Shown here: piece by piece, positions 51,750 to 64,000 of the stretch
Layout of the letters: each line of letters starts with the position of its first letter
Position numbering within the stretch: the first letter of the stretch is position 1
Assembly (NCBI GenBank): GCA_029821875.1
Contig: JALGXW010000001.1
Span: 161,987 to 225,986 of the forward strand
Direction of reading: 5' to 3'
From: Candidatus Hebobacterum abditum
GTDB taxonomy: Bacteria > Armatimonadota > Hebobacteria > Hebobacterales > Hebobacteraceae
DNA: 64,000 bases
Position numbers and translations under genes: made by a program
The notes under the pieces: generated by a model
Databases searched by the model: none
Told to the model about the DNA's origin: nothing
The model's input: only the letters and a program-made list of their open reading frames with translations

Positions 51750-51824
51750 GCCCCAGTGGCCAAGTGGATAAGGCACAGGCCTCCGGAGCCTGGATCGCAG
51801 GTTCGAATCCTGCCTGGGGTACCA
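51750..51824 (+). tRNA. tRNA-Arg (anticodon CCG), CCA encoded
   Basis: Hand-folded cloverleaf: 7-bp acceptor stem GCCCCAG/CTGGGGT (G1-U wobble), D-loop AAGTGGATAA, anticodon stem CAGGC/GCCTG with loop CU-CCG-GA, T-arm GCAGG-TTCGAAT-CCTGC, discriminator A and encoded CCA. Confidence 0.8.
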
Positions 51825-56196: not shown

Positions 56197-58017
56197 GTGA
56201 TGGCAGTGCGCCTGGCCTATGCTCCTTGGATCGTGCTGGGAGCCGTTGTCCTTGTGACGGCAGCGGCTCCGTCCCTGCGCGAGCAGGTCGGGTCGATGCC
56301 CGATGCGCTCATGCCGCGACTGGGGGAGGAGCCCGATCCCTCCGAGGCACATCTGGCACAGATCCAGCCGTGGTGTGATCGCGCCGTTGCCTTCGTCGAG
56401 CAACATCACCCAGACGACCCCGACATGATGCTGGCCGCCGGGGTGCTGGCCGGCGATGTCTCCCTGCTGCAGCGCGCGGCCGAGGCCAGCGACGATCCCG
56501 TCGCGTGGGCGGCCTACTGCGAGCTGCTCGAAAGCTGCGGGCCAGGCCTGACCTGCGGAGGCGGCTTCGAGCGCATCGGCTTGAGCGGCATCGACCCCGC
56601 CGACACGGCCGCTGTAGAACAGGAAGAGCGACGCATCGCTGAATCAGGGCTCCCGGCGAAGCTCACGCCCCAGGAGGTCCAGCCCAACCTTCGGGCGCTT
56701 CGAGCCTGGCAGGACGCCGATCCCGAGAACGGTCTGCCCGTCGCGCTGGAGGCGCGCTACCTGTATGCACTTCATCGGGACCGAGACGCGCTCATCGTCT
56801 GGTCCCAGGCCGGGCGAATGCCGCTCGCCACGCCCCATGCGATCCCTCGCGCCCGCGAGGCACAATGCCTTCTCACCGCGATGGGGATGCCCCAGGCCGA
56901 CGCGCTCGCGAGCTCCTGGCAGGTGATCATCCTGCCGAGCTTCGCGCGCCTCCGCAGCCTCGCCCGCGTCGCCTACTACGAAGGTCGGCGCGCGCAGATG
57001 GCGGACGATCCGTGGGGCGCCATCAACTGGTGGCAGTCCACCGTCGGGCTCGGCCGCAACCTCCAGGACTCGGCCGAGACGATCATCCAGTTCCACGTGG
57101 GCGTCGCCATCGAGGGCATCGGCGCCCGCCCCGTGTGGCGGTGGCACCACGACAACGTCACCGGCATCCCGGATGGGCCACTCTTGGGTGGCCGCTACTT
57201 CCACGGCCCTCAGCACGACTTCTACGTTGAGCACATGGACTGGAGGGCCGAAGAGGATATGATCGAGAATCTCGCTGGGGCGAGAGTTCGCAGCGGCCTC
57301 GTGCACGAATACACTGGCGGACCCGGCGGCCTTGGCGCATTTGAGGACTACTACCAAGCCAATCGCCACATTGGGGCGGCGGCCCTCTGGGCCTTCTTCG
57401 CCATTGTAGTGATAGCTGTCCTCGTGCTGTTCGGCACGTGGTCGCGGCGCGCCGCAGATGATGCGACACGACTCAGCAGCGCATGGCAGTTCCTCCTCGC
57501 GGTGCTTATCTTGCTGCCGGCCGCGGCGCTGGTCACCCTCGCACTCGCCAGCGGCGGCGCCGGCCCTGCCCTGAGGAGCGCGTCTCCGGCTGCGGGCCCG
57601 GCGGCGTCCATTGCACTTCCGGCTGGCCAAGCGGCCGTCGCGGCGACTCTACGTGCGGCCCGTGCCTGGGTCGAGGCGAGGCCCTATGTGGCGATAGGCT
57701 TGGCCGCGGCATCGGTGCTGGCTGTGCTGTTGCTTCCGCTGCTCGGGGCGGTCCTGGCCCGCGCAGGCGGGGCCCGGGTGCGGACGGCGTGGCGAGGGAA
57801 TCTGCGCCGCGTGCTACCGGTCGCGGTCGCCCTGTCTGCGCTTCTGTTCCTGTACTTCAATGTGACCGCGCTTCGCATCCGCGGTGCGTGGTTCGCCAAG
57901 TGGTCTGCGCCAGGGGTGACCGAGTTCAGCGACATGGTCGACCAGCTCGGCGGAGCGTGGCAGGAGCCGGACATCCCCTTCGACGCCTGGCGGGCCGAGC
58001 TGCCACCTGGCGCATAG
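56197..58017 (+). CDS. uncharacterised membrane protein family, tandem paralogue 1 (N-terminal signal-anchor, about 380-aa extracytoplasmic helical domain, 4 TM, conserved C-terminal DAWRAE motif)
   Basis: AGAGAGGGGG RBS. Shares the motifs WQxADPENxLPV, YEGRRAQ, WWQST, GIPDGPLLGGR, GPQHxFYV and C-terminal PDIPFDAWRAELPP with the next two genes. Confidence 0.6.
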   Translation: MMAVRLAYAPWIVLGAVVLVTAAAPSLREQVGSMPDALMPRLGEEPDPSEAHLAQIQPWCDRAVAFVEQHHPDDPDMMLAAGVLAGDVSLLQRAAEASDDPVAWAAYCELLESCGPGLTCGGGFERIGLSGIDPADTAAVEQEERRIAESGLPAKLTPQEVQPNLRALRAWQDADPENGLPVALEARYLYALHRDRDALIVWSQAGRMPLATPHAIPRAREAQCLLTAMGMPQADALASSWQVIILPSFARLRSLARVAYYEGRRAQMADDPWGAINWWQSTVGLGRNLQDSAETIIQFHVGVAIEGIGARPVWRWHHDNVTGIPDGPLLGGRYFHGPQHDFYVEHMDWRAEEDMIENLAGARVRSGLVHEYTGGPGGLGAFEDYYQANRHIGAAALWAFFAIVVIAVLVLFGTWSRRAADDATRLSSAWQFLLAVLILLPAAALVTLALASGGAGPALRSASPAAGPAASIALPAGQAAVAATLRAARAWVEARPYVAIGLAAASVLAVLLLPLLGAVLARAGGARVRTAWRGNLRRVLPVAVALSALLFLYFNVTALRIRGAWFAKWSAPGVTEFSDMVDQLGGAWQEPDIPFDAWRAELPPGA

Positions 58018-58078: not shown

Positions 58079-59962
58079 ATGATTAAGCCGCGCCTATCGT
58101 GGCTGGTTGTGGTCGCCGTCGTCTGCATCATCGCCGCGGTGCCGACGCTGCGCCACCACGCGGGGCTCGCCTGGCTCTCACTGAAGCCGGGGGACATAGA
58201 AGCACTGGGACTCGACGAGAACATGCCTGCGGAGGCGCATGGACCGCCCTCCTACCTCCGCGTCCTCAGTCAGCTCCGATCCCACCAAGCGAGAGCCATC
58301 GCCTTCGTCGAAGAGCACTATCCGGACGACCCGCGCATGCTGACCGCGGCGGCGCTCCTCGCTGACGAGTTCTCTCCAGGAGATCGGACTCTGCGGCTGC
58401 TCGAGCGCGCCGCCGAGCTGGGCGAGAAGCCAATTGCCTGGGCCGCCTACACCGAACGTCTCGCGGCGAAGGGCCCGCACTATGCCCGCGTGGGGTCCGG
58501 CGGGGTCGACCCCGACGACGCATTCGCAATGCAGGCTGAACGCTCGCGCCTCGCCCACTCCGGCATCCCGGACAAGCTCTCCCCGGAAGAGGCCGAGCCG
58601 ATGTTGGCTGTCGTCCGCCGGTGGCAGGCGGTCGATCCCGAGAACGCCCTCCCTGTCGTCCATGAATCCGTCTATCTGTACGGCCTCCACCAAGACAGGG
58701 AGGCGCTCATGGCCTGGGCCAGGGCCAGCCGGCTGCCCACACTGACCGCCCATTCCACAGGCCACATGCATGCCATCACCGATGTGCTCGTGGCCATGGG
58801 CATGCCTGAAGCAGACGCGCGCCTCGCCGCCTGGTCGAGCGTCCGCTGGCGGCATTTCGCTCGCCTACGGGACTGCGCTCGCATCGCCGGATATGAGGGG
58901 CGCGTCGCCCAGATCGAGGGCCGCGCCGAAGACGCCGTCACCTGGTGGCAGAGCACCTTCGACATCGGGCGCCACATGCAGGACTCCGCCGATACTCTCA
59001 TCGGCTGGCTGGTCGGCTCGGCCGTCATGAGCATCGGCACCCAGCATGTCTGGCAGTGGATCCATGACGAGCGGTCCGGCATCCCCGACGGCCCCCTCCT
59101 GGGCGGGCGCATCTTCTACGGGCCTCAGCACGGCTTCTACGTGTCCGTCATGGGCGCGGAGGCCGACGAGGACATGCGGGCCGCTCTTGTCCTCGCCAAG
59201 GTGCGCACGAAGTTGCGCCGCGGAGGCGGCTGGCCGCAGATCGCGGACGAGTACTACCTTGCAGCCGGCTATCTTCACTATGCTGGTACGCTGCTGATCG
59301 CGGCCATGGCTCTGGTGGTCGTGTTCTGCGCCCTTGGTATCTGGTCTCGCCGCGCTGCCGACGACGCTGTTCGGTCCGGCCCCCTGTGGAACCCAGTGCT
59401 GCTCGGCCTCATCTTGCTGCCGCTGGTCGTCGGAGCCCTCGCCGTACCGTTCGTCGGGGAACGTATGCCGACCAGAATGCCCGACCTCCCCGACATCGTT
59501 CCCTTCGACATTCCAGTGGAGAGCGTGGACCTCGGCCCCTTCGTGTTCTTCGGCCCGCCCATCCTCTCAGTGCTGCTTGCCGTGTTCCTCACCAGCCTGG
59601 CCGGACACAAGGGCCAGGCGCCTGGCGCCAGCCCGTTCGCCGCCTGGCGGGGCTACATCCGGCGCATCTTCCCGCCTGTGCTCGCCGTCTTCGCGCTCAT
59701 CTTCCTCGCTCTCATCATCAGTGGGCGGAACATCCGCAAGGACTGGGCTGCCTACTGGCGCACCCCCGGCAACACCGAGATGTCGTGGCATATCGAGCAC
59801 ATCGGCCCCGAATGGCACAATCCCACTATCCCACCGGACGCCTGGCGGGCCGCGCCGCCTCCTCCACCTCCACCTCCTCCGCACCCTCCAGGCAGACGCG
59901 GGATGCGAGGCTCCATGGGCAGGCGAGGTATGCGAGGCGCCCCAGGAGGCAGAGGGCCCTAG
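58079..59962 (+). CDS. uncharacterised membrane protein family, tandem paralogue 2 (with C-terminal poly-Pro/RG-rich tail)
   Basis: Same architecture and motifs as paralogue 1. C-terminus HNPTIPPDAWRAAPPPPPPPPPHPPGRRGMRGSMGRRGMRGAPGGRGP. Confidence 0.6.
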   Translation: MIKPRLSWLVVVAVVCIIAAVPTLRHHAGLAWLSLKPGDIEALGLDENMPAEAHGPPSYLRVLSQLRSHQARAIAFVEEHYPDDPRMLTAAALLADEFSPGDRTLRLLERAAELGEKPIAWAAYTERLAAKGPHYARVGSGGVDPDDAFAMQAERSRLAHSGIPDKLSPEEAEPMLAVVRRWQAVDPENALPVVHESVYLYGLHQDREALMAWARASRLPTLTAHSTGHMHAITDVLVAMGMPEADARLAAWSSVRWRHFARLRDCARIAGYEGRVAQIEGRAEDAVTWWQSTFDIGRHMQDSADTLIGWLVGSAVMSIGTQHVWQWIHDERSGIPDGPLLGGRIFYGPQHGFYVSVMGAEADEDMRAALVLAKVRTKLRRGGGWPQIADEYYLAAGYLHYAGTLLIAAMALVVVFCALGIWSRRAADDAVRSGPLWNPVLLGLILLPLVVGALAVPFVGERMPTRMPDLPDIVPFDIPVESVDLGPFVFFGPPILSVLLAVFLTSLAGHKGQAPGASPFAAWRGYIRRIFPPVLAVFALIFLALIISGRNIRKDWAAYWRTPGNTEMSWHIEHIGPEWHNPTIPPDAWRAAPPPPPPPPPHPPGRRGMRGSMGRRGMRGAPGGRGP

Positions 59963-59972
59963 GACAGGTGGC

Positions 59973-61775
59973 ATGAGTAAGCTCAGGCTTCCCTGGCTCA
60001 TCGTCGCCCTTGTCGTTGTGGTGGTCGCTGCCACACCGACGCTCCGACAGCTCGCCAGGCGCCAACTGAGGGCCGCTCTCTATCGGCCCACTGAAAGTGA
60101 CCCCGGAGCCGAATGGCTCTTTGGGGAGCGCCATCTCTGGAGCCCCGCGGCGCATGGGATGGCTTGGAGCTCTGCTCCCGACATTGGGGACCGTGCGATC
60201 CCCTTCGTGTTGGCTCACCATGCGGACGATGCCGAGATGCTCACCGCGGCCGCTGTTCTGGGCGAAGGTGAGGCGACTGACCTCGAGTGGCACGGACGGC
60301 CGGACGACGCGGAAGCTCTGAGAAAGGAGATGCACTCGCTCCTCAAGCGGGCCACATCACAGCACGGCCCGCCCGCCTGCTGGGCCGCTTACGCTGAGTA
60401 TGCGTTGTGGCATCTGACGTGTAACCGGATCGGCGCGTTGGGGATCGATCCCGAAGACGCTCAAGCCGTCCAGGAGGCGCGCTGGGAGCTGGAGGAGAGG
60501 CTAGCGTCTGATGCCGAACTGGGCTTCGTCGAGCCCACGTCCACGCAAGTCGAGGAGGCTCTTGGCGCTCTCCGCGGATGGCAGCAGGCCGACCCCGAGA
60601 ACGCGATGCCAGTCGCCCTTCGGGCGTGGGTGCTGTACGCTCTGGAGCGGGACGAGGAAGCCATAGCGGCGCTGAAGGAGGCCGCGAGCTTGCCGATCGC
60701 GACCGGCCGCGGGGCCGAACGGGGCGAGGCCGTCCGCGCGCTGGCCCTGGAACTGGACGCTTCTCCGTTGGACGCGATTCTCACAGCCAGCAACGTCTGG
60801 AGCAGCCCGTGGGTCCTGGGCAGGCTTCGGTCTCTCGGGCGCATCGCCGTCTACGAAGGGCGCCGCGCCCAGCTCGAAGGTCGGCCCGAGGATGCCATCG
60901 CGCTATGGACCGCTGCCATCAACCTCGCACGCAGCCACTCGAGGTCGGCCCACACGTTGATTGAGCATCTCGTGGGCCTGGCAGTGGAGGGAATCGCCGC
61001 CAGCCCGGTATGGCGCTGGTGCCCTGACAGCGTCACTGGCATCCCCGATGGGCCGCTCATGCGCGGCCGCCTCATGTACGGGGCTCAGTATGAGTTCTAT
61101 GTCGAACAGATGGGCGAGGAGGCCGCCGACCAGATCAGAGACAGTCTTCTGGTCGCCAAGCTCCGCTCTGCCATGCACAGGGATTACTACGGTGCTGACA
61201 CCTCCTACGAGCGTCTCTTGCTCTCTGGCTACTTCCCGTTCATCGGCCAGCTCGTCGCCGGGGCAGGGCTGCCGCTGGTGGCCCTTCTCGTCATCGTGGG
61301 GTTCTTCGGCCGAAGCTATGGAGTGCCTGGGGAGTGGGTGCGCAGGTTGAGACGCCTCGCGGTGTGGCTCCTCGTCGTCACGACCATCGCCATTGCGTGG
61401 GCGCTCGGCGGAGCACGCCTCTTCCCCGAATCCCCGATATATCCCGGCCTTCCACTTAGCCTCTTCGCCTTGCCGGGTCTGCTCGTGCTTGTGACGACCT
61501 TCCTCTTCGCCCTCTTTGCATGGGCCGACCGCGGCCCGTTCATTGCGACTTGGGGCGCGAGCCTGCGGCGTATCGTCCCACCCATGCTTGCGCTGCTCGC
61601 CGTCTGGTATCTAGTGATCTCCATCATGTCGGTTGACAGCTGCTGCAGATCGGCCCAGGAGCTCGGCCGGCCCGAAATGGCGAAGTTCATTGAGCAGGCC
61701 GGCCCCGAATGGCACAATCCCACCATTCCGCCCGACGCCTGGCGGGCCGAGTACCCGCCGAACCTCCAGCCTTGA
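59973..61775 (+). CDS. uncharacterised membrane protein family, tandem paralogue 3
   Basis: ATG 59973, 10 nt after the paralogue-2 stop; the listed ORF start 59334 is an out-of-context extension. C-terminus GPEWHNPTIPPDAWRAEYPPNLQP. Confidence 0.6.
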   Translation: MSKLRLPWLIVALVVVVVAATPTLRQLARRQLRAALYRPTESDPGAEWLFGERHLWSPAAHGMAWSSAPDIGDRAIPFVLAHHADDAEMLTAAAVLGEGEATDLEWHGRPDDAEALRKEMHSLLKRATSQHGPPACWAAYAEYALWHLTCNRIGALGIDPEDAQAVQEARWELEERLASDAELGFVEPTSTQVEEALGALRGWQQADPENAMPVALRAWVLYALERDEEAIAALKEAASLPIATGRGAERGEAVRALALELDASPLDAILTASNVWSSPWVLGRLRSLGRIAVYEGRRAQLEGRPEDAIALWTAAINLARSHSRSAHTLIEHLVGLAVEGIAASPVWRWCPDSVTGIPDGPLMRGRLMYGAQYEFYVEQMGEEAADQIRDSLLVAKLRSAMHRDYYGADTSYERLLLSGYFPFIGQLVAGAGLPLVALLVIVGFFGRSYGVPGEWVRRLRRLAVWLLVVTTIAIAWALGGARLFPESPIYPGLPLSLFALPGLLVLVTTFLFALFAWADRGPFIATWGASLRRIVPPMLALLAVWYLVISIMSVDSCCRSAQELGRPEMAKFIEQAGPEWHNPTIPPDAWRAEYPPNLQP

Positions 61776-61801
61776 CGGGCCGCGCTCGCTCATGGTATAA
61801 G
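61772..61801 (+). promoter_or_regulatory. candidate promoter TTGACG-18-TATAAG for the ileS leader
   Basis: Both hexamers are 5/6 to consensus with 18-nt spacing, immediately after the paralogue-3 stop; predicted TSS about 61808, just upstream of the leader ORF ATG at 61814. Confidence 0.45.
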
Positions 61802-61813
61802 TGCAACAGACAG

Positions 61814-61900
61814 ATGAACCGCATGGCCATCCTGATTGCCAGCATCATCATTATCGACCCGGCGGTGAGCCGGGAGCGATGCTGGATGTCAGGAAGGTAG
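61814..61900 (+). CDS. Ile-rich leader peptide MNRMAILIASIIIIDPAVSRERCWMSGR (28 aa; 25 aa from second ATG)
   Basis: Six Ile in ten residues, including four consecutive Ile codons ATC ATC ATT ATC at 61844-61855. Located between a promoter and mutually exclusive hairpins directly upstream of ileS. Confidence 0.5.
   Translation: MNRMAILIASIIIIDPAVSRERCWMSGR
61861..61873 (+). promoter_or_regulatory. antiterminator arm GGCGGTGAGCCGG (pairs with 61927-61939)
   Basis: 12 of 13 positions complementary to CCGGCCCACCGCC (61927-61939), which is also the 5' arm of the downstream terminator. Begins 5 nt after the last Ile codon. Confidence 0.4.
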
Positions 61901-61929
61901 TCCCAGACAACGAGCGCCAGCAGGCTCCG

Positions 61930-61966
61930 GCCCACCGCCAGACGAGGCGGTGGGCTTTTCGCGTTT
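61930..61966 (+). terminator. intrinsic terminator / attenuator hairpin upstream of ileS
   Basis: 10-bp GC-rich stem GCCCACCGCC / GGCGGTGGGC, 6-nt loop, followed by CTTTTCGCGTTTG. 26 nt upstream of the ileS ATG. Confidence 0.55.
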
Positions 61967-61991
61967 GTGGTGCTAGGAACGGAGCGGGGAG

Positions 61992-64000
61992 ATGTTCGAG
62001 GAGCAGTCAGGTCTGCCCGATCAGACAGAGTTGGAGAAGGGGGTGCTCGCGTTCTGGCGCGAGAGGAGAATCTTCGAGAAGCTGCGAGAGAAGAACCGCG
62101 GCGGACCGCGCTTCTCCTTCCTCGACGGCCCCATCACGGCCAATAATCCCATGGGCATCCACCATGCCCGCGGCCGCACTCTGAAGGACCTGTCCCAGCG
62201 CTACTGGGCCATGCGCGGCCGCGACCAGCGCTATCAGAACGGCTTCGACTGTCAGGGGCTGTGGGTGGAGGTGGAGGTGGAGCGCGAGCTCGGCTTCACG
62301 AGCAAGCGCGACATCGAGCGCTACGGAGTGGCCGAGTTCGTCGAGCGCTGCAAGGAGCGCGTCCGCCGTTTCGCCGATCTCATCACGCAGGACTCCATCC
62401 GCCTCGGCTGCTGGATGGACTGGGAGCGCTCCTATTCCACCGATTCCGAGACGAACAACTATGCCATCTGGCACTTCCTCAAGAAGTGCCATCAGCGCGG
62501 CCTCATCTATCGGGGCGCCGACGTCATGCCCTGGTGCCCGCGCTGCGGCACCGGGCTCTCCCAGCAGGAGGTGCAGGATGGGTATCGGGAGACGACCCAC
62601 CCAGGGGTCGTCGTCAAGTTCCCGTTGAGGGGCCGCGCGGGCGAACATCTGCTGGTCTGGACGACGACTCCCTGGACATTGACGGCGAATGTCGCCTGCG
62701 CCGTCCAGCCGGACGCTGCCTATGCACGGGTCCGCCAGGGGGATGGCGTCTACTACCTGGCGGCGGAGCGCGTGCGCGAGGTACTCAGCCAGAGCGCACC
62801 GTGGCGAGTCGAGCGTGGACTGCCAGCGAGCGAGCTGGTGGGGCTGGAGTACGATGGACCATTCGATGACCTCCCACTCGCAGCCGAGGCAGCGGCGGCT
62901 CACCGTGTAGTGTCCTGGACAGAGGTTTCCGAGGCGGAGGGCACTGGCATCGTCCACATCGCACCGGGCTGTGGCAAGGAAGATTACGACCTCGGGCGCG
63001 AGCTCGGGCTGCCGGTTGTTGTGCCTATCGACGAGAACGGCACGTTCGTGTCGGGTGCGGGCCCCTACGAAGGGATAACAGCGTCCGAGGCGGGCGATGC
63101 GATTGTCGCGTCGCTTCGCCAACGGGGCTCGCTCTACCGCGTCGATGAGCACAGGCACAGATACCCGCACTGTTGGCGATGTGGCTCTGAGCTGCTGTTC
63201 CGGCTCGTCGACGAGTGGTTCATCGCGATGGACCCATGGCGGGAGGAGATCAAGCGGCTCGCGCGAGAAGTGGCGTGGATACCAAGCTATGGTCGGGAGG
63301 TCGAGCTGGACTGGCTGGCCAACATGGGTGACTGGATGATCTCCAAGAAGCGGTACTGGGGGCTTGCGCTCCCCATCTGGCGGTGCGAATGCGGCTGGTT
63401 CGACGTGATCGGCGACAAGGCTGAGCTTCGAGAGCGGGCCGCCGCCGGCTGGGCGGATTTCGACGGCCACACTCCGCACCGTCCCTGGATAGACGCGGTC
63501 AAGGTCAAATGCGCGAAGTGCGGGGAGCTTGCCAGTCGCATCCCCGATGTCGGCAATCCTTGGCTGGACGCTGGGATCGTGCCGTACTCCACCATGGGCT
63601 ACTTCGAGGATCGTGAGGAGTGGGAGAAGTGGTTCCCGGCCGACCTGATCGTCGAATGCCTCCCGGGCCAGTTCCGCAACTGGTTCTACGCGCTCCTCGC
63701 CATGAGCGCCATGCTCGAAGGCCGCACGCCGGTAAGCACGATCGTCGGGCATGGGCTCGTCGTTGACGAGGACGGCGAGGAGATGCACAAGTCGAAGGGC
63801 AACGCGGTCCTCTTCGCTGAAGCTGCCGAGGAAGTTGGCGCCGATCTCGTACGGTGGATGAGCGCGGCGCACCCGGTCGTGCAGCCCCTACGCTTCGGGT
63901 CGGCGTCGGCAATGGCGGCGAGTGGCTGGCTCCGCACGCTGTGGAATGTGTACAGCTTCTTCGCCACCTACGCGAATGTGGACCGCTGGCCGATGTCCCA
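61992..64000 (+). CDS. ileS: isoleucyl-tRNA synthetase, type 2 (eukaryote/Thermus-like), 5' partial; continues beyond window end
   Basis: Uninterrupted frame-0 ORF from ATG 61992 to the window end. N-terminal region aligns residue-by-residue with the remembered Thermus type-2 IleRS N-terminus, and a KMSKS-region EEMHKSKGN is present. Not in the ORF track because it lacks a stop in the window. Confidence 0.85.
   Translation, partial: MFEEQSGLPDQTELEKGVLAFWRERRIFEKLREKNRGGPRFSFLDGPITANNPMGIHHARGRTLKDLSQRYWAMRGRDQRYQNGFDCQGLWVEVEVERELGFTSKRDIERYGVAEFVERCKERVRRFADLITQDSIRLGCWMDWERSYSTDSETNNYAIWHFLKKCHQRGLIYRGADVMPWCPRCGTGLSQQEVQDGYRETTHPGVVVKFPLRGRAGEHLLVWTTTPWTLTANVACAVQPDAAYARVRQGDGVYYLAAERVREVLSQSAPWRVERGLPASELVGLEYDGPFDDLPLAAEAAAAHRVVSWTEVSEAEGTGIVHIAPGCGKEDYDLGRELGLPVVVPIDENGTFVSGAGPYEGITASEAGDAIVASLRQRGSLYRVDEHRHRYPHCWRCGSELLFRLVDEWFIAMDPWREEIKRLAREVAWIPSYGREVELDWLANMGDWMISKKRYWGLALPIWRCECGWFDVIGDKAELRERAAAGWADFDGHTPHRPWIDAVKVKCAKCGELASRIPDVGNPWLDAGIVPYSTMGYFEDREEWEKWFPADLIVECLPGQFRNWFYALLAMSAMLEGRTPVSTIVGHGLVVDEDGEEMHKSKGNAVLFAEAAEEVGADLVRWMSAAHPVVQPLRFGSASAMAASGWLRTLWNVYSFFATYANVDRWPMS

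Follow-up and report, generated by a model that had tools for sequence, protein, structure and literature searches.

What controls ileS, the gene for isoleucyl-tRNA synthetase (IleRS), in an uncultured and probably Armatimonadota lineage? Synthetase genes are usually governed by T-boxes (in Firmicutes and Actinobacteria), by protein autoregulation or by no control at all, and leader-peptide attenuation of a synthetase gene is best known from pheST of Escherichia coli. The locus studied here lies at the end of a 64-kb stretch of contig JALGXW010000001.1 (the window), where a 216-nt intergenic region (61776-61991) precedes ileS. An original prediction, made by reading this DNA, had proposed that the region, whose length it gave correctly, holds a ribosome-mediated transcription attenuator built from a promoter, an isoleucine-rich leader open reading frame (ORF) and mutually exclusive hairpins. 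Our analysis, which is computational throughout, leads us to regard the ileS leader as very probably an attenuator of this leader-peptide type, tied to charged tRNA-Ile. The evidence comprises the anatomy of the leader, the energetics of its alternative folds, its conservation in a family, coding signatures, covariation and an exclusive linkage to ileS. Coordinates are window positions on the + strand, and L-numbers (for example L083 or L128) label homologous loci.

The promoter, leader ORF, terminator and downstream gene are arranged as follows.

61772-61777, + strand: −35 hexamer TTGACG, read from the sequence.
61793-61801, + strand: extended −10 element TGGTATAAG, with TATAAG at 61796-61801 and an 18-nt spacer to the −35 hexamer.
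61814-61900, + strand: leader ORF of 28 codons plus TAG (ATG at 61814, TAG at 61898-61900), encoding the peptide MNRMAILIASIIIIDPAVSRERCWMSGR.
61829-61855, + strand: six Ile codons, namely ATC at 61829, ATT at 61835 and the run ATC ATC ATT ATC at 61844-61855.
61930-61967, + strand: intrinsic terminator, with a 10-bp GC-rich stem (61930-61939/61946-61955), the loop AGACGA and then the tract TTTTCGCGTTTG at 61956-61967.
61981-61984 and 61986-61991, + strand: candidate Shine-Dalgarno sequences of ileS, GGAG and GGGGAG, read from the sequence.
61992-64000, + strand: ileS, beginning MFEEQSGLPDQ… and running off the window; the full protein has 990 aa.

Every sequence feature named in the original prediction is present at, or within one base of, its predicted position. 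These include the near-consensus promoter TTGACG-18-TATAAG, the ORF from 61814 with four consecutive Ile codons at 61844-61855, and the hairpin GCCCACCGCC-AGACGA-GGCGGTGGGC (61930-61955), which shares a strand with the antiterminator described below. The −35 hexamer overlaps the TGA stop (61773-61775) of the upstream gene, the last of three tandem paralogues. We class the −10 element as extended because TGG precedes TATAAG; (T/G)TGGTAT is conserved family-wide at the leader promoter, and TTGAC stands at the same spacing from the −10 in most homologues despite their differing upstream genes. Transcription would start near 61808, which would leave a 5′ untranslated region (UTR) of about 6 nt. 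A simple consensus scanner listed neither this promoter nor the terminator, the former because its −10 ends in G rather than T, the latter because only four T occur among the first eight bases after the stem. Both are nevertheless conserved in position among homologues. The identity of the downstream gene is clear: the window IleRS is 100% identical to the 990-aa database protein P0001, whose score with TIGR00392, the NCBIfam equivalog for ileS, is 653.9 bits (cut-off 621.4).

The Ile run is not an effect of base composition. Runs of at least four ATH codons occur once in the 64-kb window, both strands counted, against about 0.04 expected from trinucleotide frequencies. Ile takes 21% of the codons in the leader and 4.2% in the three neighbouring genes (67 ATC, 7 ATT and 6 ATA).

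Can this RNA adopt the alternative structures that attenuation demands? The 166-nt leader folds with a minimum free energy (MFE) of −79.6 kcal/mol (z = −5.2 against dinucleotide shuffles), and the MFE structure of the full leader combines a 1:2 hairpin, a nested 6-bp GC hairpin and the terminator. The strands upstream of region 4, the 3′ arm of the terminator, are these.

61826-61846, + strand: region 1, the 5′ strand of the 1:2 anti-antiterminator hairpin (GCC, UCCUGAU and CCAGCAUC), which overlaps the Ile codons and is paired in the MFE folds.
61858-61874, + strand: nested GC hairpin CCCGGC-GGUGA-GCCGGG, inside the 1:2 structure, sequestering part of region 2a and present in every fold.
61861-61898, + strand: region 2, made up of 2a (61861-61877, GGCGGUG-A-GCCGG-G-AGC), which pairs with region 3, and 2b (61878-61898).
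61917-61939, + strand: region 3, the 3′ strand of the antiterminator (CCAGCA, GCU, CCGGC and CACCGCC), of which 61930-61939 is also the 5′ arm of the terminator.

In the MFE structure, the 1:2 hairpin joins 61826-61846 to 61878-61898 through the stems GCC/GGU, UCCUGAU/GUCAGGA and CCAGCAUC/GAUGCUGG. Region 2b pairs either with region 1 in this way or, through UGCUGG (61880-61885), with CCAGCA (61917-61922). When the 3′ arm of the terminator is left out of the fold, the antiterminator 61861-61885/61917-61939 forms at −44.5 kcal/mol (z = −3.8). Its helices are GGCGGUG/CACCGCC, GCCGG/CCGGC, AGC/GCU and UGCUGG/CCAGCA, and the lower one draws on the GAUGCUGG strand, which is also the partner of region 1. 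The folds therefore predict the full 1:2, 2:3 and 3:4 layout of a classical attenuator: cognate codons are clustered, a terminator stands between the ORF and the gene, a 2:3 antiterminator shares a strand with that terminator, and a 1:2 hairpin overlaps the regulatory codons. Homologues folded one by one behave alike. The full-length MFE structure has both the 1:2 hairpin and the terminator in 20 of 21, and an antiterminator of 18-23 bp appears in all 21 when region 1 is masked and region 4 is absent.

The original prediction had found GGCGGTGAGCCGG (61861-61873) to be complementary at 12 of 13 positions to CCGGCCCACCGCC (61927-61939), as it is, and had opposed this pairing to the terminator; both structures form, the 2:3 pairing being seen without the terminator 3′ arm. 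The antiterminator proves to be about twice as long as that 13-mer, and neither its extension to 61885/61917 nor the 1:2 hairpin over the Ile codons had been described. Both bear on a caveat raised at the time, that the leader stop codon lies well past the antiterminator arm and leaves the stalling geometry uncertain. This concern is largely resolved: the 5′ strand of the antiterminator reaches 61885, so that its base would be hidden by a ribosome standing on the stop codon (61898), and the 1:2 hairpin lies over the Ile codons.

How might such a leader work? The transcription start, translation of the ORF, ribosome stalling and conditional read-through are steps that we infer from this layout. 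The dedicated extended −10 promoter would start the transcript a few bases 5′ of the 28-codon ORF. With sufficient Ile-tRNA, or with no translation, region 1 would pair with region 2b while the nested hairpin ties up 2a, and region 3 (61930-61939) would be free to pair with region 4 (61946-61955) and form the terminator. A ribosome at the stop codon would cover approximately 61883-61910, the base of the antiterminator; after its release, the very stable 1:2 and nested hairpins would lock region 2 and the terminator would again form. With scarce Ile-tRNA, a ribosome holding an early codon of the run in its A site would protect approximately 61829-61860, a footprint spanning region 1 together with the 5′ arm of the nested hairpin. 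Once freed, region 2 (61861-61885) could capture region 3 (61917-61939) upon its transcription. This 2:3 pairing would take the 5′ arm of the terminator and let RNA polymerase read into ileS. Low Ile or low IleRS activity would then yield more IleRS, which is the logic of a T-box read by a ribosome.

Does the element belong to ileS, or could the hairpin be the terminator of the paralogue or of a small peptide gene, with ileS transcribed from elsewhere or by leaky read-through and not regulated here at all? The terminator does lie downstream of a paralogue gene, and the −35 hexamer overlaps the stop codon of that gene. We searched the IleRS N-terminus against species-representative genomes; the best matches were 51-68% identical, and at these distant ileS loci the leader was absent by an Ile-codon scan and by a covariance model, R1. 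Closer IleRS sequences were found in the protein database, two at 89% identity and about 20 at 66-76%. Ten ileS loci chosen by IleRS similarity alone (66-89% identity) all have the leader directly upstream. When metagenome contigs were scanned for exact matches to the core pattern GGCGGTGNGCCGGGAGCGATG, 34 loci were returned, 19 of them with the leader; the other 15 matches lack the leader ORF, some lying inside long open frames, and were discarded as chance. Together with the look-ups, this gives 24 distinct variants, in which the mini-ORF with its Ile codons is conserved, as the original prediction would have it.

All 22 variants with downstream sequence adjoin the 5′ end of ileS, and the other two are on contigs cut before ileS. 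The distance from core to ileS is 116-131 nt in 20 variants, 250 nt in L125 and 384 nt in L126. The upstream gene varies among members of the paralogue family, rpsL/rpsG on the opposite strand, a methyltransferase gene, a DinB-like gene and a zf-HC2 anti-sigma gene, and the TTGAC-17/18-TGGTAT promoter and the leader accompany ileS whichever of these is present. Model R1, built from 20 leaders (effective sequence number 2.15), scores the window copy at 163 bits and found no other full leader copy in the window or in 80 distant loci; its sole other match below E = 0.01 is the terminator palindrome on the opposite strand.

An ileS without regulation at this site is therefore hard to reconcile with the data, and we hold it to be highly improbable. 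The element stays with ileS where the upstream gene is unrelated or divergent, and the leader has a conserved promoter of its own. The gap from the terminator to the ileS ATG is just 36 nt, and the consensus scanner found no promoter-like site between the hairpin and ileS. In addition, the competing helix that uses the terminator's 5′ arm has been conserved, and in L128 its strands have altered together (below).

One lookalike was met among the distant loci. A AGGATCATCGTCGG motif upstream of ileS in Gaiellales resembles an Ile-rich mini-ORF and was rejected, as it falls within a conserved coding region on the opposite strand that resembles a thioredoxin gene. At eight loci in metagenome-assembled genomes (MAGs) of Gaiellales and Thermoleophilia (L009, L032, L039, L055, L063, L065, L075 and L076), the same type of ileS is preceded by a divergent, conserved coding region that is thioredoxin-like. 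The intergenic region at these eight loci is short, with no Ile mini-ORF and no covariance-model match to the leader, and an Rfam scan of L009 found no T-box.

Is the leader ORF translated? Several independent comparative signatures suggest that it is. In all 24 variants a start codon stands 44, 47 or 50 nt ahead of the core, and the stop lies exactly 37 nt past the first base of the core, as TAG in 15, TAA in six and TGA in three. The ORF is 27-29 codons long, and its insertions and deletions come only in multiples of three (+3 or −3); L083 has an in-frame extra ATT codon that makes five consecutive Ile. The distance from stop codon to terminator, in turn, varies freely (30, 31, 32, 33, 34, 39, 60 or 62 nt). 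Residues 2-9 are highly variable with the frame kept open (MNRMAILIA, MRRVSSLLA, MSRHGLSLIG, MSGRFFLMT, MTHHAICIA and others). Changes within the Ile codons are synonymous: the codon aligned with 61835 is ATT, ATA or ATC by lineage, and the run in L125 and L126 reads ATC ATA ATT ATT. The number of Ile per variant is 2-7, and every one of them falls among residues 1-15, the last 13 residues being free of Ile.

The same nucleotides can be read in the +1 frame as a His run (CAGCATCATCATTAT, Q-H-H-H-Y), a candidate that we rejected. In that frame no start codon follows the promoter and no stop is conserved, and the His run is broken in L125/L126 (HHN) and in L116, where the Ile frame persists; we conclude from this that the Ile frame is probably the functional one.

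The second half of the peptide behaves differently. Its C-terminal half, PAVSRERCW, is nearly invariant, and because the few substitutions in it (V to A, S to R, R to Q) alter the amino acid, the conservation is one of the RNA and not of the peptide. The point matters for a reading in which the leader is coupled to translation without being specific for Ile, so that it reports general translation speed or uses PAVSRERCW as an arrest peptide, Ile being merely a hydrophobic feature. Such a leader would fit the near-invariance of the C-terminal half and the existence of variants with few Ile codons (2-3). It fits less well with conservation at the RNA level, with Ile being in every case the cognate amino acid of the regulated enzyme, and with an approximately five-fold enrichment of Ile codons exactly over region 1. 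The drifted members L125 and L126, moreover, keep Ile by synonymous codons and lose the His alternative. Taken together, these observations make sensing that is blind to Ile very unlikely.

Other frames over the leader are spuriously open in this GC-rich DNA, among them one of 127 aa from GTG 61801 (61801-62184, + strand) and one of 63 aa from 61709. The source annotation calls a 63-aa hypothetical protein over the leader in L081 (23-214), and the 28-codon leader ORF itself is unannotated.

Have the paired strands changed together? We counted structures in alignment A2, which holds 20 sequences. For the OFF structure (1:2 hairpin, nested hairpin and terminator), 86.9% of cells are paired, compared with 32-50% in slid controls, and eleven pairs have changed on both sides, a number reached in none of 500 shuffles. 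The terminator has 99% of its cells paired and both-side changes in five of 11 pairs. Compensatory exchange is plain in the inner 1:2 stem, which is CCAGCAUC/GAUGCUGG in the window, GCAGCAUC/GAUGCUGC in L086 and CGGCAUC/GAUGCCG in L090. The outer 1:2 stem shows many unpaired cells when columns are fixed because its register shifts between lineages, and it was judged by per-sequence folding instead. The nested hairpin is invariant in all 20 sequences and offers no covariation for or against it. For the antiterminator, 90.5% of cells are paired in the 20 sequences, against 29-46% in slid controls, and most of it is invariant. De novo consensus folding with RNAalifold recovered the nested hairpin, the lower antiterminator helix and the terminator.

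The most telling change is found in L128. Here region 2 has gone from GGCGGUG to GGCGGCG, region 3 from GCCCACCGCC to GCCCGCCG and region 4 from GGCGGUGGGC to CGGCGGGC, a three-way U-to-C / A-to-G / U-to-C substitution across regions 2, 3 and 4. This concerted change supports the antiterminator, because it is what a strand shared by two helices predicts.

Could a known RNA, above all a T-box, account for the leader? Rfam at gathering thresholds found no T-box and no other regulatory RNA family in the whole window. The only RNA gene detected there is a tRNA-Arg (anticodon CCG) at 51750-51824 (+ strand). With permissive filters (E ≤ 10), positions 61650-62100 (451 bases) gave noise only, such as plant-virus hairpins and microRNAs, and no T-box. 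A T-box (Rfam RF00230) is recognised by a stem I specifier loop together with GGUGGNACCGCG in an antiterminator bulge, a combination that the leader does not have, and no UGGNACC core is seen on reading its sequence. None of the Rfam amino-acid leader families (Thr_leader, Leu_leader, His_leader, Trp_leader, Phe_leader and others) reaches its gathering score, and 20 related distant ileS loci scanned with Rfam are also without a T-box. With no Rfam match to the leader, we rejected a T-box or other known RNA. A canonical T-box was among the findings that the original prediction had named as refuting it; its attenuator interpretation is now supported by the ileS linkage, the coding signatures, the conserved alternative pairings and the lack of an Rfam match.

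A riboregulator of a kind outside these families might still act as RNA alone, with the core and AUCAUCAUU binding uncharged tRNA-Ile, IleRS or a small ligand and with the ORF incidental. AUC is the codon that a T-box specifier for tRNA-Ile(GAU) would use, and ThrRS of E. coli is an example of synthetase autoregulation. The sequence conservation lends this some appeal, given that the nucleotides of the core and of the ATC ATC ATT tract do not vary, with almost no synonymous change in the high-GC members, that the core changes (V to A, S to R, R to Q) are non-synonymous and place the C-terminal half outside amino-acid selection, and that the ORF has no Shine-Dalgarno sequence. Yet the T-box and all other Rfam families fail even at E ≤ 10, and UGGNACC is missing. 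ORF ends fixed in 24 of 24 variants, the use of three stop codons, indels in multiples of three and synonymous Ile changes would be unexpected in an untranslated RNA. Nor does the invariance of the core call for a trans-acting factor, since each of its bases joins two or three mutually exclusive helices. An RNA-only mechanism is, in our judgement, quite unlikely.

The leader could also sense twice. In this version the invariant core CCCGGCGGUGAGCCGGGAGCGAUGCUGG and the AUCAUCAUU tract would additionally bind tRNA-Ile or IleRS, or PAVSRERCW would arrest the ribosome as a nascent peptide. The idea arises because core and tract are almost invariant while IleRS is only 66% identical in the most distant members. 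We consider such a dual sensor unlikely; if it were true, the leader would be a hybrid, part leader-peptide attenuator and part T-box-like or autoregulatory RNA.

The leader-peptide attenuator that we favour has to be weighed against several observations that count against it. The first concerns initiation: the leader ATG has no evident Shine-Dalgarno sequence before it (ACAGACAGAUG), unlike ileS with its GGAG/GGGGAG, so that initiation would need a very short or unstructured 5′UTR. The second concerns the sensor, as some variants have only two or three Ile (SIILTT, EIAIAG). Stalling geometry is a third point, in that the opening 3-6 nt of region 2a would lie beneath a ribosome halted at the third or fourth codon of the run. 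Energetics are a fourth. When region 1 is masked and region 4 kept in, the terminator persists in the MFE structure; since the terminator is thermodynamically favoured whenever region 4 is present, antitermination must be kinetic, as it likewise is in the trp operon of E. coli. Finally, the comparative evidence has limits. The 28-nt core and the ATC ATC ATT codons are near-invariant in nucleotides across IleRS of 66-100% identity, so that most antiterminator pairs are constant (8 of 21) and contribute nothing by covariation. The L128 change is the sole compensatory event specific to the 2:3 pairing, for which covariation support is thin, and the number of effectively independent sequences or lineages is small (2.15 in the covariance model).

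How does this leader compare with known systems? In E. coli pheST, a leader-peptide attenuator with a cognate-codon ORF (pheM) and mutually exclusive hairpins lies directly before the synthetase gene, and pheM has 14 codons. The ileS leader resembles it in its position directly before a synthetase gene, in its short ORF of cognate codons and in its exclusive terminator and antiterminator. It differs in responding to Ile instead of Phe, in its probable origin in Armatimonadota instead of Gammaproteobacteria, and in having no sequence similarity; its ORF is also longer (27-29 codons), with a nested GC hairpin and no obvious Shine-Dalgarno sequence. The E. coli thr/ilv leaders thrL, ilvL and ivbL follow the 1:2 / 2:3 / 3:4 logic and count Ile among their regulatory codons. 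The present leader shares that three-hairpin logic and the Ile regulatory codons, whereas the thr/ilv leaders serve biosynthetic operons with mixed Thr/Ile or Leu/Val/Ile codons and this one serves a synthetase with Ile only. It gives no covariance match to Thr_leader and related Rfam families.

The literature offers further points of comparison. pheST is cited as the paradigm of synthetase leader-peptide attenuation, and in Actinobacteria ileS is controlled by translational T-boxes (PMC1262725). The target gene and the signal, tRNA-Ile charging, are the same there, whereas the actinobacterial T-box binds uncharged tRNA and sequesters a Shine-Dalgarno sequence, and in the present leader the sensor would be a translating ribosome and the output an intrinsic terminator. 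Leader peptides have been predicted upstream of trpS and leuS in Streptomyces (PMC1262725), and a His leader precedes hisS paralogues in Bacillus (PMC2965389). Like the ileS leader, these are computational predictions of cognate codons before synthetase genes outside Proteobacteria; they involve other amino acids and other phyla and have no sequence relation to it. The view in 2010 was that no leader peptides were known beyond Proteobacteria and Actinobacteria (PMC2965389).

A parallel by annotation comes from Caulobacter crescentus, where ribosome profiling and mapping of coding sequences (CDSs) placed a small ORF, CCNA_03934 (annotated as an 'ileS leader CDS'), directly upstream of ileS (PMC4117421). 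It served only as a control in that study, which did not characterise attenuation. The likeness, in another phylum, is one of annotation and position; it offers a partial precedent for an ileS leader that is translated. The original prediction had called an Ile-codon leader unusual for ileS, and in view of CCNA_03934 (PMC4117421) and the Streptomyces trpS/leuS leaders (PMC1262725) this was somewhat overstated.

The mechanism is not new; what the evidence supports is a new instance, on ileS of an uncultured and probably Armatimonadota clade, of the classical leader-peptide attenuator. The assignment to Armatimonadota is based on the Obg protein of the window, whose nearest matches bearing an organism name are proteins that NCBI places in Armatimonadota, at about 70% identity. 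Leader-peptide attenuation would be a third solution for the control of ileS, with the sensing of tRNA charging reinvented on this gene. It would also extend ribosome-mediated attenuation beyond Proteobacteria, Actinobacteria and Firmicutes to this lineage. In practical terms, the 24-variant alignment and the covariance model can seed an RNA-family entry, which would improve the annotation of MAGs.

Two low-GC members of the family, L125 and L126, have an enlarged spacer between terminator and ileS. Just 5′ of the ileS Shine-Dalgarno sequence they carry three to four tandem TTGAAC-containing repeats with 8-nt spacing (1957-1983 in L125, 1941-1975 in L126). These hint at further layers of control and could be a second promoter or a regulator-binding array. 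L125 and L126 alone also have an extra GC-rich hairpin between the leader stop and region 3 (A2 columns ~105-135), which is CAGGGTGCC-CAAG-GCACCCTG in L125; the segment between stop and region 3 accordingly tolerates large insertions.

The three tandem paralogues upstream of the leader (56197-58017, 58079-59962 and approximately 59960-61775, + strand) encode proteins of about 600 aa, the first two being 40% identical. The second, the sole copy scanned, had no Pfam match. By eye, the translations have hydrophobic N- and C-terminal stretches that resemble membrane segments. The motif GPEWHNPTIPPDAWRA occurs near the C-terminus of the second and third paralogues and in a degenerate form, WQEPDIPFDAWRAE, in the first, and a poly-Pro / Gly-Arg tail (PPPPPPPPPHPPGRRGMRGSMGRRGMRG…) closes the second. 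Upstream of ileS in L085 and L088 lies a gene with the GPEWHNPTIPPDAWRA motif at its end, and L082 and L084 have Pfam-less genes of similar size in that place. On the other side of ileS, the close relatives L081, L083, L084 and L085 have an ECF sigma-factor gene approximately 100-120 nt 3′ of it, followed by a FecR/PD40-domain (anti-sigma-like) gene.

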